DNA of 64,000 nt from Patescibacteria group bacterium. Its GTDB lineage: Bacteria > Patescibacteriota > Microgenomatia > Levybacterales > UBA12049. Each line of letters starts with the position of its first letter. Position 1 is the first letter of the stretch. The stretch is from positions 18,092 to 82,091 of the forward strand of contig JBGTMH010000045.1 in assembly GCA_041743715.1 (NCBI GenBank). Reading direction: 5' to 3'. Below are positions 8,025 to 31,074 of the stretch, piece after piece. Under the pieces are notes generated by a model that was not told the DNA's origin, made no database searches, and saw nothing but the letters and a program-made list of their open reading frames with translations. The position numbers and the translations under genes were made by a program.

Positions 8025-10166
8025 TTAATATTTGAAGATTTGGAAAAGGTTGCTGTAGTCATCTGTCCAGAGTTTTATGTCTGTTCTACTTGGCTTGTCC
8101 TTTTTTGCTTTGTTAAGTGCTGAGGTCGTAAGTAATGATTTATCAGCCGCGAGAAACGCCCATTTGGAACGTGACTGCATATCATTTGCAGGAGGCACAT
8201 CGATAAAAATAACATGCATCTTGTGATATTGCGCAGCTTTTTGGATGACAGGAATGAGATCAAGATAGGTATTTGAAATATGGACCGCGATAATACTCTC
8301 CTTTGCAAGATGTGCTTTATAGAGTGCAAATGCTTCTTTGGTCAGCAGATGTACGGGGATTGCGTCATCGTTAAATGCATCCACGATAAAGAGATGATAG
8401 TTCTGCTTGTTATTTTCTTTGAGTTCTTTTTCCATTGAAAGCCTTCCATCACCGACAACATTTGTCACTTTTGCAGGTGTGTTGGCAAGATAGGTAAAAT
8501 GTGTCTTTGCCAGTTCTACATCTAACGGATTTAATTCATAAAATTTGATAGTATCTCCCTCTTGTCCATATGCTGCGATTGTCCCAACACCCAGTCCGAT
8601 AACACCAATCTGTAGTGGAGTCGTTTTTTCGCGAACACTATCGACAGCAAGTCCGATACTCTTTTCTCCAAAATATGTTGTCGGTTTCATCTTTTGTGAC
8701 TCAGCCAAGGGTTGGCAACCATGGATAATTTTGCCATTGAGTAGGCATCGGGTATCGGTTTTTTCTTGCTGCATTATTCGGAGTGTACCGTAGGAATTTC
8801 TCCAAACGCCAACTGAATTATTTGTTTGTTCAAGAAATAAGGCTATGGAAATGATTCCAAAAAAGAAACTGACAACAGCGATAAGAAAGACGGTCATTTC
8901 TTTTTGGGACCGGAGACCAAAATCAAGTCGGCGGTACAGAAATGAATTTTTATACTTGATAAGCACAAGGACTGCAATAAGCGTTGTTAAAAATAACCCA
9001 AGCAAGAATTCCCAAAAGAGTCCAATAAAAAAAATCGGCGCGATAATCGCGACAATTAATGCTCCTACCACACTGCCGAAAGCCATTACTAAGTAAAAGG
9101 CATTTATGTCTTTTGTTGGGGGTCTCGTGGCAAAAAGTTCACCGTGACACACCATAAAACAGCTGAAAAGCATAATGGTATACAAAACAAGCTCGACAAA
9201 AATGCTCAGTGCAGGCGGCTGGGTCAGAAGGGCTAGGACTACAGGAATAGTCAGAAGAAAACAATACGCGTAGAGATTCCGTTTGTAAAAAGATCGCTCA
9301 CTAAAGCATAGGATAAAAGAAAGAAGATATAATCCGAGCGGCAGAAGCCAAAGAAACGGAATCGGGGCGATACCCTGTGTCAATTGATGTGTTCCAGCAA
9401 GAAGCATGAGTGATGAGACTGCGGGAAGAAAGAGCCAGAGTCTATACTGTGTCATCCCGACCGAGTCCGCAGACGAGTGGAGGGATCTTTTCAACTGTGC
9501 CGCTTGTGGTGAGAAGATTCCTCGACTCCTTTCAGTCGCTCGGAATGACAAATAAGTACAAAATACAAGTAATAAACATAAAATAATAAAAATAAGTGAC
9601 CAAATCTGTCCTTGGTTTTGTAATGAAAGAAAGGGTTCGATAAAAAAAGGATAACTAATAATTGCCAACAGGGAGCCCGCATTGGAAAGAGCATAGAGTG
9701 GATAAGGAGATTTTTTATGAGGAAGTACACTGAACCATTTTTGTAAAAGCGTGCTGGTTGTGGAGAGAAGAAAATATGGTAGCCCGACACTTATCAGTAA
9801 GATAGCAAGTACCTGGATTACCGGTGCGTATGTCTCAGGAAGTTTTAGTTCAACTCCTGGTGTAATAGGTGAGTTCCAATGTGAAAATAAAAGCACCGTA
9901 ATAATGACAATTGTCACAACTAATGTACTATGAAGCAAGAGCTGCTGTCTTAATGAGAATTTTGTGAGCAGATACGCGTACAAGTAACCCGCCAAAAGCA
10001 GGGTTTGAAAAAATAACAGTGAGGTTATCCAAACAAACGATGTTCCACCAAACCATGGAAGAATATATTTTCCGATGAGCGGTTGGACTTGGAAGAGCAG
10101 AAAAGCGCTGAGGAAGATGGTTACTGAAAAACTGATGAAGTAGAGAAGCGAATGGTTGTATTTCAT
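8025..10166 (-). CDS. Polytopic membrane domain fused to a spermidine-synthase-like (class I methyltransferase fold) domain
   Basis: 713 aa. About 450 aa of TM helices, then VIGLGVGTIAAYGQEGDTIKFYELNP...LFIVDAFNDDAIPVHLLTKEAF, a spermidine synthase family signature. Confidence 0.75.
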   Translation of the reverse strand: MKYNHSLLYFISFSVTIFLSAFLLFQVQPLIGKYILPWFGGTSFVWITSLLFFQTLLLAGYLYAYLLTKFSLRQQLLLHSTLVVTIVIITVLLFSHWNSPITPGVELKLPETYAPVIQVLAILLISVGLPYFLLSTTSTLLQKWFSVLPHKKSPYPLYALSNAGSLLAIISYPFFIEPFLSLQNQGQIWSLIFIILCLLLVFCTYLSFRATERSRGIFSPQAAQLKRSLHSSADSVGMTQYRLWLFLPAVSSLMLLAGTHQLTQGIAPIPFLWLLPLGLYLLSFILCFSERSFYKRNLYAYCFLLTIPVVLALLTQPPALSIFVELVLYTIMLFSCFMVCHGELFATRPPTKDINAFYLVMAFGSVVGALIVAIIAPIFFIGLFWEFLLGLFLTTLIAVLVLIKYKNSFLYRRLDFGLRSQKEMTVFLIAVVSFFFGIISIALFLEQTNNSVGVWRNSYGTLRIMQQEKTDTRCLLNGKIIHGCQPLAESQKMKPTTYFGEKSIGLAVDSVREKTTPLQIGVIGLGVGTIAAYGQEGDTIKFYELNPLDVELAKTHFTYLANTPAKVTNVVGDGRLSMEKELKENNKQNYHLFIVDAFNDDAIPVHLLTKEAFALYKAHLAKESIIAVHISNTYLDLIPVIQKAAQYHKMHVIFIDVPPANDMQSRSKWAFLAADKSLLTTSALNKAKKDKPSRTDIKLWTDDYSNLFQIFKY
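9451..9549. repeat. 99-bp nested palindromic element (GTCATCCCGACCGAG...GTCGCTCGGAATGAC) inside the coding sequence
   Basis: Outer arms 9451-9465 / 9535-9549 pair at 12 of 15 positions. Inner arms 9475-9492 / 9511-9528 pair at 15 of 18. 99 bp is 33 codons, read through as LSFRATERSRGIFSPQAAQLKRSLHSSADSVGMT between TM helices. Confidence 0.7.
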
Positions 10167-12678: not shown

Positions 12679-13902
12679 ATGGCAAAAATTAATAAAAATT
12701 TTAAAAAATTACAAAAAAACTATCTATTTATAGATATTGCAAAGCGGACAAAAGCGTTTATAGAAGCAAATCCCGGTGTTACGGTTTTGCGTCTTGGTAT
12801 CGGTGATACAACCGAACCCATTCCGCCAGTTGTCATAGCCGGTATGCACGCAGGTGTTGAGAAATTATCAAAAAGAGAAACGTACACAGGGTATGACGAC
12901 AATCTCGGAAATCCGCGGCTTAAGCAGGCTTTTGTGGATTGGTATCAACAGCGCGGCGTTTCCCTTGATACATCGGAAATTTGTATTGGGGATGGAGGAA
13001 AACCTGATAGTGGAAATATTCAATCAATTTTTTCTCCCAAAAACATCATTGCCGTTTCTGATCCTGTTTATCCGGTATATGTTGACAGTAATGTTATAGC
13101 TGGAAGAACTGGAACCTATGCAAACGGAAAATATAAAGGAGTTGTCTATATGCCCCTCACAAGTAAAAATAATTTCATCCCCAAAGTACCTGATGTAAAA
13201 GTAGATTTGATTTATTTATGCAGTCCAAATAATCCGACCGGAGGAGTGATGAGTAAAAAAGATCTTGAGCGGTTTGTGAAATATGCCAGGAAAAACAAAT
13301 CAGTCATTATCTTCGACTCCGCCTACTCAATGTATATAAAAGATAGCGATTTGCCGAGAAGTATTTATGAAATTGAAGGAGCAAAATCTTGCGCGATAGA
13401 AATCAGCAGTTTTTCAAAATGGGCTGGATTCACAGGGGTGCGGCTGGGGTGGACGATTGTCCCAAAAGAATTGGTCTCAGAAGATTCGGAGAAAGGGGAA
13501 TTACATGCGATGTGGTTCCGTCGACAGACGACTATGTTTAATGGCGCATCAAATATTGCTCAAGAAGGCGGCATAGCTGTTTTGTCAAAACAAGGGCAGA
13601 AGCAGTGTCAGCAACTGGTTGATTATTATATGGGAAATGCACAGTTAATTAGAAATACATTTTTAAAATTAGGATTCACTGTCTATGGAGGAGAAAATGC
13701 GCCGTATATTTGGCTTAAAACACCGACTGGTTATAGCTCTTGGGAATTTTTTGATAAAGTACTCAGTGAGACTCATATCGTCGGAACACCTGGATCAGGA
13801 TTCGGCAGTTGTGGAGAGGGATATTTCAGACTCTCAGCATTTGGAAAGAGGGAGAATATTGAGAAAGCGGTTAAAAGTATACAGAAGAATTTAAAACTAT
13901 GA
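12679..13902 (+). CDS. dapL: LL-diaminopimelate aminotransferase
   Basis: N-terminus MAKINKNFKKLQKNYLFIDIAKR is DapL-typical. Also SFSKWAGFTGVRLGW (PLP-binding Lys) and CSPNNPTG. Start taken at ATG 12679 rather than the ORF-track start 12640. Confidence 0.85.
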   Translation: MAKINKNFKKLQKNYLFIDIAKRTKAFIEANPGVTVLRLGIGDTTEPIPPVVIAGMHAGVEKLSKRETYTGYDDNLGNPRLKQAFVDWYQQRGVSLDTSEICIGDGGKPDSGNIQSIFSPKNIIAVSDPVYPVYVDSNVIAGRTGTYANGKYKGVVYMPLTSKNNFIPKVPDVKVDLIYLCSPNNPTGGVMSKKDLERFVKYARKNKSVIIFDSAYSMYIKDSDLPRSIYEIEGAKSCAIEISSFSKWAGFTGVRLGWTIVPKELVSEDSEKGELHAMWFRRQTTMFNGASNIAQEGGIAVLSKQGQKQCQQLVDYYMGNAQLIRNTFLKLGFTVYGGENAPYIWLKTPTGYSSWEFFDKVLSETHIVGTPGSGFGSCGEGYFRLSAFGKRENIEKAVKSIQKNLKL

Positions 13903-25013: not shown

Positions 25014-25384
25014 TAAATAATTAACTGTAGCGTGCGAACAATAAGAATAAATGAAAGTAACGCTGCGAGAAGTGTGGTAATACTGAGAATTCGCGAGACG
25101 AGGGGCATGGTAGCATAGAGTTTGGCTAGGAGAAAATAATTAAAGGAAAAAAATATAACAGTTATCACAAGTGGCAGTACGATCTCAAGACGAGTTCCTA
25201 GCCTTGCTTCTCCCCAAGGCATTTGATTATAGAGTGGAATAACCGGGGGAAGTGAAAAATAAAATATGCCAAGAGATAAGGTATGAAGCAAAAGAAGCAT
25301 AAATGCCATGGTCATTGCCCAACGAATAATCTTATCTGCTTTAATATGACTAAAGACTCCGTTCATAAATTGTAGCTCCCTCAA
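25013..25384 (-). CDS. Small hypothetical membrane protein
   Basis: 123-aa ORF with 4 hydrophobic segments, tightly packed between two envelope genes. The start is uncertain (overlaps the upstream gene by 35 nt). Confidence 0.5.
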   Translation of the reverse strand: MRELQFMNGVFSHIKADKIIRWAMTMAFMLLLLHTLSLGIFYFSLPPVIPLYNQMPWGEARLGTRLEIVLPLVITVIFFSFNYFLLAKLYATMPLVSRILSITTLLAALLSFILIVRTLQLII

Positions 25385-26921
25385 GGGTAAAGCGCATTAT
25401 ATAAAGTGTCGCACGAAACGGCAAGGGCTCTATTTCATTCAGGGTAATAATATACTTTGGTTTTGCGCGATCGATAGCTTCTTGTGTTTCATTTATTGCG
25501 GCTTTGTTCTGGCTTATGTGATAGGCGACAGTATATTTGTTCGGTGGCAGTTTATTAGAGAGGGCATAAATTTGCGCATTATTACCCCAAATAAAAACAT
25601 TATCTTCTGGCGTTGTATGCGTATTGATAAAAGACGCGACTGCATAATCACGAGGAGTTTTGCGATCGAAAAACGCTTGATAAGATGTGACGTCTTTTTC
25701 CCCTGTGACGAATAGGAGAGTGTTTTGGTAATACGCAATTGTTTTCGTAACACCAAAACGGAACTGAGACATAGTGAGAAACATAACAATTATTATGCAC
25801 AACAGAATGCTAACTCGTTGCGGTTTGGTCCGGCTCGCGAAGAATAATCCTATGAGTAAACAAAAACTTGGAAGCAGGACCAACACATAATGTGTATAAG
25901 GACGTCCCGAAAAAAATGTATTAAAAAGAGAAAACACAACCCAGAGCGCGATAAAGAGTGCTGTATGGGAGAATAATTTTCTTTTAAGGAAAACGATAAG
26001 TAAAACGATGACGAGGAGTAATAGCTTGAGAAGAAGAAACCCTTGAGGTATTCCTAAAAAATTGTTCTGCCAGCCAACATATCCAACATTACCGAAAAAT
26101 GCCGCTTGTATAAAGTCTTTAAGAGCACCGTGAGATGCAAAATAGAGGATGGTGATAAGGAGTGGCAGGAAGAATCCAAAAGTCATTGGCAACACATATT
26201 GAAGTACTTGTTTGAAATGTTTTCGGTTTATTTTTTGTAAGTTCATAGAAAGGACAAATAAGAAGAATGCAGCAAAGTCAAAGAGAGCGACTATTTTAAA
26301 GAGAAAAGCAATACCGAGTAAAAGACCGGCAATGAAAAGTTTCATTTTGTTGTCATTGCGAGCGACTGATAAGGAGCGCGGCAATCCCCAGCTTTTTGGC
26401 AAATCCACAGGGGATTGCTTCGTCGTTCCTTCTCGCAATGACGAAGTATAGACAATCAATCCAGCCATAATGATTGGTAGCAACATGAAATTCTCGGCAT
26501 TGGCAATATTTCCTTCAACGAGTGGCGTTGCAAAGAGCAGTATATAAAGAGAGGTTGTCGCGATGCTTATGCGAAGTGAAGAGAAAAGTTTTTTGGAAAG
26601 CAAAAAGAAAAAAACAACTGAAAGCAAGCCCACAACAAGCGACATGACTCGAACTGTAGTTTGATCACCGTTTGCAACTGCATATACGAGATACAAGAGG
26701 GGAGGTTTGTTGTCCCAAATGTCACGATACAAAAGCCAACCTTTATCAATTGCTTGGCCCATAACTTCATAAATTCCTTCATCTCCGTACCAATACGGTT
26801 CAATCACTGAAGGAAGTCGAAGCAGAAAAAAAATAATACAAAGTACAAGAAGTGACCAAAAAAACTTACTTTTTTCTAAATAGGTGAGGAACTTCATAAT
26901 CTTAAATTTTCCATTGTCCAT
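25350..26921 (-). CDS. GT-C fold glycosyltransferase (ArnT/PMT_2-like, family 39/83-like)
   Basis: 523 aa, polytopic. The first loop YWYGDEGIY / DNKPPL is typical of ArnT/PMT_2 enzymes. It contains the palindromic element at 26352-26442. Confidence 0.7.
   Translation of the reverse strand: MDNGKFKIMKFLTYLEKSKFFWSLLVLCIIFFLLRLPSVIEPYWYGDEGIYEVMGQAIDKGWLLYRDIWDNKPPLLYLVYAVANGDQTTVRVMSLVVGLLSVVFFFLLSKKLFSSLRISIATTSLYILLFATPLVEGNIANAENFMLLPIIMAGLIVYTSSLREGTTKQSPVDLPKSWGLPRSLSVARNDNKMKLFIAGLLLGIAFLFKIVALFDFAAFFLFVLSMNLQKINRKHFKQVLQYVLPMTFGFFLPLLITILYFASHGALKDFIQAAFFGNVGYVGWQNNFLGIPQGFLLLKLLLLVIVLLIVFLKRKLFSHTALFIALWVVFSLFNTFFSGRPYTHYVLVLLPSFCLLIGLFFASRTKPQRVSILLCIIIVMFLTMSQFRFGVTKTIAYYQNTLLFVTGEKDVTSYQAFFDRKTPRDYAVASFINTHTTPEDNVFIWGNNAQIYALSNKLPPNKYTVAYHISQNKAAINETQEAIDRAKPKYIITLNEIEPLPFRATLYIMRFTLEGATIYERSL
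26352..26442. repeat. 91-bp nested palindromic element (GTCATTGCGAG...CTCGCAATGAC) inside the coding sequence
   Basis: Perfect 11-bp outer arms 26352-26362 / 26432-26442. Perfect 9-bp inner arms GCAATCCCC 26381-26389 / GGGGATTGC 26410-26418. The ORF reads through it as SLREGTTKQSPVDLPKSWGLPRSLSVARNDNK. Confidence 0.75.
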
Positions 26922-27015
26922 ATACCATTCTCCATGTTATTTATTAATTGTTCAATAGCATTATTTTCCTAAATAGAAAATCAATGGAAAATGGAACCTG
27001 GAAAATGGAAAATTC

Positions 27016-28516: not shown

Positions 28517-28614
28517 AAAGTCAAAATGCAAAAGTCAAAATTGTAAGTTAAAATTCAAAAGTTGTGTTACTTTTTACTTTTGAGTTGCACTTTTGACTTT
28601 TGCATTTTGACTTT
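28517..28614. repeat. Perfect 24-bp inverted repeat separated by 50 bp
   Basis: AAAGTCAAAATGCAAAAGTCAAAA at 28517-28540 is the exact reverse complement of 28591-28614. The spacer holds a further CAAAAGT/ACTTTTG pair. It lies between the tatD stop and the GT2 start, and its right arm supplies the last tatD codons. Confidence 0.8.
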
Positions 28615-29485
28615 TTAATTTACTAAATATAGTATATACATTTCTATCTGTTTGTTCTACAAGTTTTTCATATGATATCCCTTTGAGATCTGCTATGAAT
28701 TTTGCTGTCAGTATAGCATGTTGGGGTATGTTTCTCTGACCTCTGTAAGGGACAGGCGTGAGATATGGCGCGTCAGTCTCAATCACAATTCGGTCAAGAG
28801 GGGTCATCAGTGCCAGTTCTCTCAGTTCTACTGTCTCTCTTGGTGCTAAGCCTTTGTAAGTGATATTCCCATCAAACCCGATACAAAATCCCAATTCTAA
28901 AGTATTTTTCAGAAATTCCCGGTCTCCTGCGAAGCAATGAAACATACCTGGAGGATCTAAAAGTAACTTTTTATGGTGACGGAGAATTTCGATTACATTC
29001 CGCCCTGCGTGACGGTTATGAATTTGCAGTGGGAGGCGACTATGATGTGCGAGCTCAATTTGTGCTTCGAAAATCTCTTTTTGCAATTTTGGATCAACAA
29101 TGCCATTTGATTTATAAGAAAAGTAATCCATGCCGATCTCTCCTATTCCGATCACTTTTGGATGTAAAGTGAGTTTCTTGAGTTCTTTAAGCCAATAATC
29201 TTTGTCTCGTGGAGATGCATCGATTGTTTGATTTGATGGAGTATCCTCAGTTCTCTCAACAACATCTGGATGTTTTTGAATTTTATCAGCATGATGGGGA
29301 TGGATACCGATGATAGCAAAAAGATTGTCGTACTTCTCTGCAAATTCAACAGCCTTTTGACTTGAAGAGAGCTGTGTGCCGGTATTGACGATAGCCGTTA
29401 TACCTTCAGCGAAGGCATTTTTTATCACAGCATCATAATCGTTTTCAAATGCTTTAAATTGGAGATGACAATGGACATCAATCAT
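28574..29485 (-). CDS. tatD: TatD-family metal-dependent hydrolase
   Basis: MIDVHCHL, GIHPHHA, IGEIGMDY, LQIHNRHA, HCFAG, ETDAPYLTP. The C-terminal SQNAKVKSATQK tail is read from the palindrome. Confidence 0.85.
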   Translation of the reverse strand: MIDVHCHLQFKAFENDYDAVIKNAFAEGITAIVNTGTQLSSSQKAVEFAEKYDNLFAIIGIHPHHADKIQKHPDVVERTEDTPSNQTIDASPRDKDYWLKELKKLTLHPKVIGIGEIGMDYFSYKSNGIVDPKLQKEIFEAQIELAHHSRLPLQIHNRHAGRNVIEILRHHKKLLLDPPGMFHCFAGDREFLKNTLELGFCIGFDGNITYKGLAPRETVELRELALMTPLDRIVIETDAPYLTPVPYRGQRNIPQHAILTAKFIADLKGISYEKLVEQTDRNVYTIFSKLKSQNAKVKSATQK

Positions 29486-29561: not shown

Positions 29562-30998
29562 CTATATTCTAGGAAATAAAGGCTTTTCACTTTTTATTTT
29601 CGGTCCCTTGAACTGTTCTGCGATATGTTTTGCAGTTTCTGGTAGAAAGGGTTGCAAGAGATATGCTGTTTCTTGAATTTGGTCCACACAATGTGCGAGG
29701 ACACTTGATGCGCGGTCGGTGTTGGTTTTAACCAGTGTCCATGGTTTTTCTTCATTAATGAAGCGATCAAGAGCGGAGATCTTTTCCCATATATAACTGA
29801 GTGCTTCATTAAATTTATATTCTTCAAGCGCTTTCATGTACGATTCATCACTGAGCACATGTTCGCTCAAATGATCGTTTGAGCCCATATGAGTATAATC
29901 CATTGTTTCGCAAAGCTTTGCTACCCGTGCAACCACATTGCCAAGTCCATTTGCTAAGTCGGAGTTGTAGGCTTTTTTAAACTTATCCCATGAAAAATCA
30001 CTATCTTCCCAAGGATGAAGTTTGGCAAGCAGATAGTAACGTAACGTATCTGTCCCATATTTCTCAGTTACCTCAATAGGGTCAATGGTATTACCGAGGC
30101 TTTTACTAATTTTCTGTCCGTCTACTGTCAAAAATCCATGGATAAATATTTGTCTGGAACTGGGTAAGTTCGCTGACATAAGCATTGCTTGCCACATAGC
30201 TGCTTGTTGACGTACCTGATCTTTTCCAGCAAATTGTACTCCTGGCCAATATGTTTTGAAGTTCTTTTGATTCTTAGGCCATCCGATGGTCGAAATATAG
30301 TTAATGAGTGCGTCAAACCAGACATACATAACATGATCCGGATCACCAGGGACATCGATTCCCCAGGGCATTTTTGCTTTCACCCGAGAAATGCTAAAGT
30401 CCTGTAAGCCTTTTTTAACAAAATTTGTAATTTCATTGAGCTTGCTCTCAGGTAACACAAAATCGGGGTTTTTCTTATAAAGCTCAAGGAGTTTCTTCTC
30501 GTAACGAGAAAATCGGAAAAAGTAGTTTTCTTCTTCATAATTTTGCATTTCTTGTTTGGGATGCAAAGGGCATCTGCCATCTACCAGTTCAGAATCTGTT
30601 TTTTCCAATTCACAACCAACACAATATTTGATTTTATAAAGTTTTTTGTAAATATCGCCATTTGCCAAACATATTTTCCAGAACTCTTTTGCTGCTTCAA
30701 TATGGTATTTATCGGTTGTACGAATAAAATTCGTATAACTTAAGTTAAGCGCATCCTTTAAGGCATCAAACGTTGCTGCATACTTATCACAGTAATCCTG
30801 AGGCGACATGTCTGATTCCAATGCTTTCTCATAAATCTTGAGACCGTGTTCATCTGTGCCAAAATTAAAAATAACATCATCTCCTTTAATCCGATGGTAA
30901 CGGGCGATAACATCTGCTTGAATGATTTCTAGCGCGAATCCAATATGCGGTTCAGCATTGACATAAGGAAGAGTCGTGGTGAGATAAAATTTTGTCAT
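29562..30998 (-). CDS. metG: Methionine--tRNA ligase
   Basis: TTTLPYVNAEPHIGF (HIGH-type), CxxC...C zinc knuckle, KISKSLGN (KMSKS). Start moved to ATG 30998 because the ORF-track extension MLKQVQHDKKP is read from the palindromic element. Confidence 0.9.
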   Translation of the reverse strand: MTKFYLTTTLPYVNAEPHIGFALEIIQADVIARYHRIKGDDVIFNFGTDEHGLKIYEKALESDMSPQDYCDKYAATFDALKDALNLSYTNFIRTTDKYHIEAAKEFWKICLANGDIYKKLYKIKYCVGCELEKTDSELVDGRCPLHPKQEMQNYEEENYFFRFSRYEKKLLELYKKNPDFVLPESKLNEITNFVKKGLQDFSISRVKAKMPWGIDVPGDPDHVMYVWFDALINYISTIGWPKNQKNFKTYWPGVQFAGKDQVRQQAAMWQAMLMSANLPSSRQIFIHGFLTVDGQKISKSLGNTIDPIEVTEKYGTDTLRYYLLAKLHPWEDSDFSWDKFKKAYNSDLANGLGNVVARVAKLCETMDYTHMGSNDHLSEHVLSDESYMKALEEYKFNEALSYIWEKISALDRFINEEKPWTLVKTNTDRASSVLAHCVDQIQETAYLLQPFLPETAKHIAEQFKGPKIKSEKPLFPRI

Positions 30999-31007
30999 AG
31001 GTTTTTT

Positions 31008-31074
31008 GTCATGCTGAACCTGTTTCAACATCTTATCAGTTATAATGAGGATCCGGAAACAAGTTCAGGATGAC
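31008..31074. repeat. 67-bp palindromic element (GTCATGCTGAACCTGTTTC...GAAACAAGTTCAGGATGAC) in the metG 5' region
   Basis: 19-bp arms 31008-31026 / 31056-31074 pair at 17 of 19 positions, with a 29-nt loop. It shares GTCAT/ATGAC termini with the elements at 9451 and 26352. Confidence 0.75.

Follow-up and report, generated by a model that had tools for sequence, protein, structure and literature searches.

The CGTC-tagged repetitive extragenic palindromes (REPs), defined by Di Nocera, De Gregorio and Rocco in 2013 (BMC Genomics 14:522; PMC3733652), are the point of departure for this report, which concerns a palindromic element at positions 26352–26442 of a 64,000-nucleotide stretch of DNA from a Patescibacteria group bacterium (contig JBGTMH010000045.1; the whole stretch is called the window below). 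The element lies inside a gene for a membrane glycosyltransferase of the GT-C fold. The units of CGTC-REPs carry an unpaired tag, CGTC with the variants TGTC or CCTC, followed by a stem of 8–9 bp that starts with AT, a loop of 4–5 nucleotides (nt) and a CCA tail, and most of them are arranged as head-to-head dimers able to form one large hairpin (PMC3733652). They have been described in five phyla, chiefly in Alphaproteobacteria. Intragenic copies that lie in frame encode 20–30 amino acids (aa); the published table of such copies includes the peptides VIPAKAGI, SFPRKRES and DSRFRGND, with several copies in membrane proteins (PMC3733652). No transposase is associated with these repeats and their mobilising enzyme was reported as unknown in 2013 (PMC3733652); our literature search found no later report of one. 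Two of the families coincide with Rickettsia palindromic elements (RPEs), RPE-6 being CGTC-1 and RPE-4 being CGTC-4. The RPEs are palindromic inserts that lie in frame in the genes of functional proteins (Ogata et al. 2000, as cited in PMC3733652). Some hosts of RPE-type inserts are membrane proteins, such as cation/H+ antiporter subunits, AmpG and NADH dehydrogenase subunit L (PMC3733652).

Literature searches by the terminal 11-mers of the element returned unrelated primer matches only, and nothing relevant emerged from searches that combined palindromic in-frame elements with the Candidate Phyla Radiation (CPR). Two further classes of small repeats enter the comparison. Miniature inverted-repeat transposable elements (MITEs) are flanked by target-site duplications and have ends that match those of a known insertion sequence. 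REPINs and the RAYT transposases have reportedly been described by Bertels and Rainey in 2011 and by Nunvar et al. in 2010.

Here we present evidence that the element is probably a non-autonomous mobile palindromic repeat that persists in frame in a permissive loop of the GT-C protein, where it is tolerated rather than used.

Results

A nested palindrome read through by the GT-C gene

The element, its parts and the host gene are as follows.

26352–26442, no strand assigned: palindromic element of 91 nt, a head-to-head dimer of two GTCATTGCGAG-headed half-units.
26352–26362, plus strand: left outer arm GTCATTGCGAG, preceded by T, which gives the tag TGTC.
26363–26380, plus strand: left variable segment CGACTGATAAGGAGCGCG, of which the initial 8 nt are bulged in the fold and the remainder pairs with 26419–26431.
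26381–26389, plus strand: left inner arm GCAATCCCC, including GCAATC, which is conserved in the family.
26390–26409, no strand assigned: central loop AGCTTTTTGGCAAATCCACA, hypervariable among family copies.
26410–26418, plus strand: right inner arm GGGGATTGC.
26432–26442, plus strand: right outer arm CTCGCAATGAC, followed by G, so that the gene-sense (minus) strand reads CGTCATTGCGAG, the canonical CGTC tag.
25350–26921, minus strand: host gene, encoding a 523-aa membrane glycosyltransferase of the GT-C fold (ArnT/PMT/OST-like); the insert corresponds to residues 161–190, between helices 142–162 and 188–208.

Read in order, 26352–26442 consists of GTCATTGCGAG CGACTGATAAGGAGCGCG GCAATCCCC AGCTTTTTGGCAAATCCACA GGGGATTGC TTCGTCGTTCCTT CTCGCAATGAC. 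The outer arms GTCATTGCGAG/CTCGCAATGAC (11 nt) and the inner arms GCAATCCCC/GGGGATTGC (9 nt) are both 100% complementary, as an earlier note on this DNA had claimed. The gene-sense end carries CGTCATTGCGAG (CGTC) and the opposite end TGTCATTGCGAG (TGTC). Together with the flanking tag bases, T at 26351 and G at 26443, the element comprises 93 nt, or 31 codons; its immediate flanks are TT and GA. At 54%, its G+C content compares with 40% for the window.

The whole element folds into one hairpin. As RNA, the plus strand reaches −47.4 kcal/mol (z = −6.2, equalled by none of 200 shuffles) and the minus strand −42.8 kcal/mol (z = −5.6), and the DNA fold has z = −6.55. Among 5,325 sliding windows of 106 nt across the 64 kb (mean −18.6, standard deviation 5.5), the one with the element ranks first. 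An 11-bp inverted repeat alone is unremarkable: by our estimate, about 1.5 are expected within 100 nt in 64 kb, and a search of the window with the 11-mer gave three matches against 0.83 expected by shuffling. On such figures, a chance palindrome or an assembly artefact might be proposed, given that a single repeat of this kind is expected about once per 64 kb. However, the full nested structure, with its two sets of arms, its extended pairing and its rank, is far beyond chance; moreover, a conserved gene keeps its reading frame through the element, and hundreds of independent copies with the same termini are present in other assemblies. The family evidence presented below rules this explanation out, and the probability that we would still attach to it is practically nil.

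The half-units alone fold no better than their shuffles (z = −0.41 and −0.80; −0.02 for the family consensus unit), compared with z = −5.5 for a CGTC-1 unit alone. The only pairing possible within one half-unit is ATTGC/GCAAT, 5 bp around 16–21 nt, and hence only the dimer forms a hairpin. At gathering score, neither the window nor any of 18 element-bearing loci matched an Rfam covariance model; at a permissive threshold, the element itself gave only chance-level matches (E ≥ 0.33).

The open reading frame (ORF) of the host gene passes through the element uninterrupted, as YTSSLREGTTKQSPVDLPKSWGLPRSLSVARNDNKMK (in a longer excerpt, SSLREGTTKQSPVDLPKSWGLPRSLSVARNDNK), in agreement with the in-frame reading of the earlier note; the peptide strings of the element-bearing protein include EGTTKQSPVDLPK and SWGLPR. 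Homologues of the protein number more than 2,000. Identical ones aside, the nearest shares 58% identity with it, and many have precomputed matches to PMT_2, PMT or PF27757; one is named as a member of the ArnT family from Candidatus Levyibacteriota. A Pfam search with the host protein itself gave no match. An AlphaFold2 model built on an alignment of 62 sequences has a mean predicted local distance difference test score (pLDDT) of 92.5 and a predicted template modelling score of 0.91, and its closest structural matches, archaeal AglB, ArnT, yeast OST/Stt3, DPY19 and the PMTs, identify the GT-C fold. All invariant GT-C residues are retained in the intact ORF, including D47 and E48 in the outward-facing first loop.

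The only low-confidence region of the model spans residues ~163–187, with means of 60, 45 and 60 for successive blocks of 10 residues. This stretch is modelled as a coil between the transmembrane (TM) helices 142–162 and 188–208, which bears out the proposed position of the insert in a loop between TM segments. Counting helices from the outward-facing first loop (D47, E48) and from the conserved EGNIANAEN loop, we infer that the insert is on the cytoplasmic side, in the loop between TM4 and TM5. Its charge, six K/R against three D/E, is net positive and fits the positive-inside rule for a cytoplasmic loop.

Immediately upstream of the GT-C start, at 26905–27014, lies an inverted repeat with 31-nt arms that are 84% complementary (AATTTTCCATTGTCCAT... 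/ ...ATGGAAAATGGAAAATT), which is a low-complexity intergenic palindrome.

The inserted segment is an addition to the protein

The earlier note would have been contradicted by conservation of the segment at the protein level in GT-C orthologues. We found the opposite: most of the 120 aligned orthologues lack the segment, and the length of the loop is hypervariable, as is its sequence. In the orthologues from 80 further metagenome loci, the region bounded by NIANAEN and LLLGIAF shrinks to as little as 36–37 aa, compared with 69 aa in the window protein, so that the loop can be up to 32 aa shorter than it is here. The segment is thus an addition and not native protein sequence. The peptide GLPRSLSVARND recurs in the copy L128:4831, outside any long ORF, which indicates that conservation is at the level of DNA.

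These observations bear on the view that the segment has long been inherited vertically with the protein and was recruited for a function, for example as a cytoplasmic interaction loop. Its being in frame, stop-free and net positive, as expected of a cytoplasmic loop, would agree with such recruitment, as would the fixation of a comparable insert in TatD across a large clade (see below). Nevertheless, the absence of the segment from the closest orthologues, the hypervariability of the loop, the pLDDT of 45–60 across the segment and the recurrence of its peptide outside genes make exaptation very improbable indeed. Where the earlier note had left the choice between a tolerated and an exapted insert, tolerance agrees with the scarcity of the segment among orthologues and with its low pLDDT, and nothing supports exaptation. 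There is no sign of a new functional device.

A dispersed family with identical termini

A scan of genomes, one per species, with the pattern GTCATTGCGAG-N40-70-CTCGCAATGAC gave at least 120 loci. The matches listed include Alpha-, Gamma- and Deltaproteobacteria, Bacteroidota, Chloroflexi, Planctomycetota, Cyanobacteria and Patescibacteria, with Bradyrhizobium, sphingomonads, Pedobacter, Mucilaginibacter, Flavobacterium, Microcoleus and Berkelbacteria among the taxa. The family has the outline (C/T)GTCATTGCGAG...GCAATCC-loop-GGATTGC...CTCGCAATGAC(G/A). More fully, (C/T)GTCATTGCGAG is followed by a short purine-rich segment or a small GC hairpin, then by (G)AAGCAATC or G(C/T)GGCAATC, a variable loop and the complement. 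In the window element GCAAT is followed by CCCC, compared with CCAG or CTC in most family copies, and here those bases pair with the other half. When one mismatch was allowed, 651 of 735 heads were paired head-to-head within 40–200 nt. The identity of the 11-nt termini and of the GCAATC core across phyla argues for recognition by a conserved protein and not for structure alone.

The copy closest to the window element, L128:4831, matches it almost exactly in the arms and differs from it in the central loop; it is located outside any long ORF on a Microgenomates-like contig that also encodes a GT-C orthologue. The CGACTGATAAGGAGCGCG-type subfamily segment is found in this copy and in L125:7724, and near-relative copies are located inside the TatD gene in both L125 and L128. 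That related genomes harbour one family at such different places is what speaks most strongly for mobility. A census of 874 kb of related, non-redundant Microgenomates-like DNA detected 13 elements when 10 or more of the 12 arm positions had to match, whereas shuffled sequence gave 1.8; of the 13, 12 were judged credible. A Pfam search with five element-encoded peptides gave no match.

The family pattern is also present in at least 120 viral contigs of IMG/VR. Two of these contigs were inspected; in both, portal, capsid and tail-like genes are present and the elements are intergenic, which suggests that phages may be carriers that help to spread the family. A blastn search of the 26352–26442 element against GenBank phage records gave no match. 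Several contigs with phage portal, capsid and tail-like genes (L236 5836–6627, L269 1178–5238, also L242 and L255) contain two to three intergenic elements each of the TGCGAG type, the subfamily to which the internal sequence of the window element belongs.

Flank and length statistics were computed for 124 family copies. The copies are 62–92 nt long with no preference modulo 3 (45:44:35), so that about a third of insertions would keep the frame. GTCAT is preceded by C in 84 copies and by T in 33, and ATGAC is followed by G in 90 and by A in 31; the flanks are thus complementary, with a pyrimidine at −1 and a purine at +1. Direct repeats of 1–8 nt flank these copies at or below chance level.

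These statistics are pertinent to the possibility that the element is a classical MITE, that is, a deletion derivative of an insertion sequence, the ends of which are bound by a DDE transposase and the target of which is duplicated. The 11-bp terminal inverted repeats, the size of 60–110 bp and the dispersal over many genomes are all MITE-like. However, target-site duplications, for which the earlier note had suggested a search, are lacking at the 124 copies, where the flanking bases are instead complementary; complementarity extends through most of the element and is not limited to its ends; and no longer element with these ends around a gene was seen in 2.9 Mb of element-bearing loci. We accordingly regard a classical MITE as highly improbable. 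Of the proposal that the element is a mobile, MITE-like repeat, mobility holds, as witnessed by copies in intergenic DNA, in other genes and in other phyla, and the classical MITE, with no target-site duplications at the 124 copies and no longer element with these ends seen in the 2.9 Mb, very probably does not.

Among the same 2.9 Mb, pairs of single heads flanking a gene in a REPtron-like arrangement yielded none that was meaningful. One head pair in the related DNA, inside lepA (LepA), was rejected as chance matches with one mismatch. A tblastn search with seven RAYT/TIRYT sequences, rebuilt from the supplement of PMC3733652, against the 2.9 Mb and the 64-kb window gave no match.

Recurrent occupation of two protein loops

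Besides the window protein (P0001), five of the 120 GT-C orthologues recognisably carry elements in the same loop, and a sixth (P0024) possibly carries one of another type; the elements of P0009, P0002 and P0024 are inferred from peptides only. The GT-C loop of P0007/L001 contains a 70-nt TGCGAG-type copy with its half-units in the opposite order, and those of P0009 and P0016/L202 also contain TGCGAG-type copies, whereas P0002 and P0085/L203 have dimers of the CGTC-1 type (VIPAKAGxQ...SGMT). The carriers are polyphyletic in a neighbour-joining tree without support values, in which P0001 pairs with P0002, a carrier of the other type. This distribution suggests that the same GT-C loop was colonised independently. 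The copy in the loop of P0016 (L202, ~640–750) is decayed: its outer arms are now TTCTTCTTTG / CAAAGAAGAA, with two positions changed on both sides and the pairing preserved.

A separate recurrent insert of the GT-C loop encodes variants of (Y)KILNTKYLIL (L001 3540–3580; many other orthologues have it, among them L128, L138, L144, L156, L173, L190, P0043 and P0047). This insert, similar to the low-complexity repeats in the intergenic DNA of these genomes, has its source in short tandem DNA of the AAATACTAAATAC kind.

The second loop belongs to TatD, encoded two genes upstream of the GT-C gene:

29198–29281, minus strand: extra segment IQKHPDVVERTEDTPSNQTIDASPRDKD in the TatD gene (28574–29485, minus strand), with no DNA symmetry left.

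Counted from GxHP to GEIGxD, the TatD loop that follows HPHHADK is 36 aa long in its base form, and the more distant orthologues are at this length. A segment of ~23 aa is fixed across the closest relatives, which several sources name Levybacteria; more than 100 of the closest orthologues conserve the protein sequence of its initial half (IQxNPEVVExTEG). The names borne by GT-C and TatD homologues are the basis on which the host is assigned to the Levybacteria. Intact TGCGAG copies, all of which read VIAS...PRND, are present in about 10 of 120 TatD orthologues scattered through the tree, and other subfamilies occupy the site in L001, L173 and L184. Because orthologues carry intact superfamily elements at the same site, the segment at 29198–29281 is probably a decayed remnant. 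A derivation of the conserved Levybacteria segment PEVVExTEG from a TGCGAG unit was considered and set aside, the DNA match being too weak for such a claim.

The peptide IPASPAGR is encoded both by a 111-nt TGCGAG element of TatD (L128 7685–7795) and in the GT-C loop of L138. Its source is a small GC-rich hairpin, CCTGCCTCGCCGGCAGGCAGG, which may be a separate nested module.

Of the 12 credible elements in the 874 kb of related DNA, seven lie in the GT-C and TatD loops, which by a rough estimate make up ~0.5% of the sequence. Such enrichment could come about in several ways: the loops may be neutral landing pads, in which an already enlarged loop tolerates further insertions; they may hold old insertions that have decayed in most lineages; or there may be a real preference for these sites. 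Carriers of different subfamilies are interspersed with relatives that have no element. A more specific version, namely, that elements do not simply land at random and undergo filtering but return repeatedly to the GT-C TM4–TM5 loop and to the TatD loop after HPHHADK, either by site-directed integration or through resident remnants refreshed by recombination with active copies, seems to us rather doubtful at present. If true, this return to hot spots would amount to a homing-like behaviour that has not been described for REP or RPE elements, and would provide a standing source of loop diversity in streamlined genomes, with the choice of insertion sites becoming testable.

Other members of the superfamily in the window

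Two further members of the superfamily were found in the window.

9451–9549, no strand assigned: second superfamily member, GTCATCCCGA...TCGGAATGAC, 99 nt, inside a 713-aa fused MFS/spermidine-synthase-like gene (8025–10166, minus strand).
31008–31074, no strand assigned: third superfamily member, GTCATGCTGAAC...GTTCAGGATGAC, 67 nt, at the 5′ end of the ORF 29562–31031 (minus strand).

The copy at 9451–9549 has the third most stable fold of the window and lies in a protein loop. Orthologues of the 713-aa protein have a variable loop of ~20–30 aa at this site and the net gain is some 8–10 residues; either the element replaced an earlier loop sequence or deletions followed its insertion. In the case of the copy at 31008–31074, the ATG chosen by the ORF finder for the 489-aa ORF is inside the element (MLKQVQHDKKP), and a second ATG (MTKFYL) follows 11 codons on. 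The second is probably the true start, and the element would then be in the 5′ leader.

The three copies share only the GTCAT...ATGAC ends and belong to different subfamilies. The proposal that two membrane-protein genes of the window carry the same element type in loops therefore holds at the level of the superfamily, members of which are present in both, and fails at the level of the subfamily. Likewise, the three copies that the earlier note had intended for comparison do exist, but they do not represent a single element type, and the third is at the 5′ end of a gene and not in a loop.

Another GTCAT...ATGAC pair in a long ORF, at 12832–12897, with 10 of 12 arm matches, shows neither further pairing nor family resemblance and was judged to be due to chance. 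Between TatD and the upstream 502-aa gene, at 28517–28614, there is an imperfect palindrome with 46-nt arms (87% complementary) made of AAAGTCAAAATGC-like low-complexity repeats. In fold stability it ranks second in the window (−45.6 kcal/mol), and it is unrelated to the GTCAT elements.

Discussion

Taken together, the results are best explained by the insertion of a copy of a GTCAT-headed, CGTC/TGTC-tagged head-to-head dimer into the GT-C gene. The insertion would have persisted because three conditions coincided: the 93 nt keep the frame, the frame read (SLR...RND) is free of stops, and the TM4–TM5 loop is short and hypervariable. This loop, presumably cytoplasmic, would be at a distance from EL1 and EGNIANAEN, the conserved motifs that face outward. 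The product would carry ~31 extra residues, predicted to be disordered and net positive, that are tolerated and not used. The element itself would move, or have moved, as a single-stranded hairpin and would be mobilised in trans by an enzyme encoded elsewhere. By analogy with REPINs, the likeliest guess for this enzyme is a Y1/HUH transposase of the RAYT/IS200 type, which we offer as a tentative candidate.

Several points weigh against this interpretation. The nearest orthologue, at 58% identity, is too distant to reveal an empty site at the DNA level. The 64-kb window holds only one copy of the exact subfamily, which leaves recent activity in this genome hypothetical. No mobilising enzyme was found, either by the scan for head pairs or by tblastn with RAYT/TIRYT sequences, in the 2.9 Mb and the window. 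The opposite order of the half-units in L001 was dropped as a proof of separate insertion, given that a palindrome can invert in place. Finally, the perfect arms could reflect selection for the hairpin rather than recent insertion, and the same could apply to the paired arm changes in L202 and to the single variable base, which matches between the two halves in 17 of 22 short-type dimers, against 0.31 expected. The latter two observations fit hairpin selection and self-templated palindrome repair alike.

The last of these points raises the possibility that the hairpin is kept as a nucleic-acid signal in the gene, for instance as an mRNA structure that slows ribosomes between TM segments, or as a site of transcript protection or processing, the peptide being a by-product. 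In its favour are the most stable local fold of the window, two sets of arms that are perfect despite an old host lineage, the paired changes in L202, the matching variable bases, and the location of two window copies (26352–26442 and 9451–9549) between TM segments. Nevertheless, the family also occupies intergenic DNA, the gene of the soluble enzyme TatD, phage contigs and many phyla with no common gene context; most GT-C orthologues manage without the element; no Rfam family matches it; and the symmetry of a palindrome can be maintained by intrastrand templated repair without selection. We therefore consider a retained signal very unlikely, and a tolerated copy of a mobile repeat remains the explanation that we prefer.

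The findings have implications for annotation. About 31 residues of the glycosyltransferase should be regarded as repeat-derived filler and not as a lineage-specific domain, and the same caution applies to stretches of TatD and, probably, of the 713-aa membrane protein in the window. They also extend CGTC-type palindromic elements, for which Rickettsia is the best-known case of in-frame colonisation of genes, to the CPR and to phage contigs, and document a subfamily whose 11-nt termini stay identical even between phyla that are very distant from each other. This conservation of the termini points to a widespread protein partner, and small CPR genomes, with their few candidate enzymes, could be a good place to find it.

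Comparison with known systems

The element shares with CGTC-REPs the CGTC tag at one end and the TGTC variant at the other, the AT start of the stem, and the arrangement in head-to-head dimers, with homo- and heterodimers of half-units; its ATTGC...GCAAT followed by CC resembles CGTC-3 (ATTGCCGGG...CCCGGCAAT-CCA). In-frame intragenic copies, the lack of an adjacent transposase and abundance in Bradyrhizobium, sphingomonads and Bacteroidetes are likewise common to both. However, the units of the CGTC families are stem-loops (8–9 bp with a 4–5 nt loop), whereas the half-units described here do not fold alone; the subfamily peptides SLRG, VIAS, HCE and LAMT are absent from the list of intragenic REPs in PMC3733652; and Patescibacteria, Chloroflexi, Planctomycetota and Cyanobacteria are outside the five phyla listed there. 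We therefore treat the element as a variant of the CGTC-tagged REP kind and not as a member of CGTC-1 to CGTC-4, an assignment that is our own.

The likeness to RPEs consists in an in-frame palindrome in a membrane-protein gene of a small genome, with the insert absent from most orthologues and the ORF intact. Moreover, the RPE-6/CGTC-1 type itself occupies this GT-C loop in P0002 and P0085/L203. The differences are in the internal sequence, which is that of the TGCGAG subfamily, and in the host, which is a free-living or epibiotic CPR lineage and not an obligate intracellular alphaproteobacterium.

Similarly to REPINs, the element consists of two inverted units that form a long hairpin of 70–110 nt, leaves no target duplication, and is dispersed and non-autonomous. 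REPINs, however, have the tag GTAG and a RAYT gene flanked by the same REPs, compared with CGTC/TGTC here and no RAYT-like gene found near any copy in the window or the 2.9 Mb. With MITEs such as Correia/NEMIS, RUP and ERIC it has in common that it is small, non-coding and dispersed, has terminal inverted repeats and is sometimes co-transcribed or read through; target-site duplications belong to MITEs, and there are none at the 124 copies.

Thus, the class of selfish palindromic DNA is known already, and in-frame insertion into permissive loops has precedents in Rickettsia and in other bacteria. The new points are the CPR/Levybacteria host, the half-units that do not fold alone, the presence on phage contigs and the repeated use of two loops.

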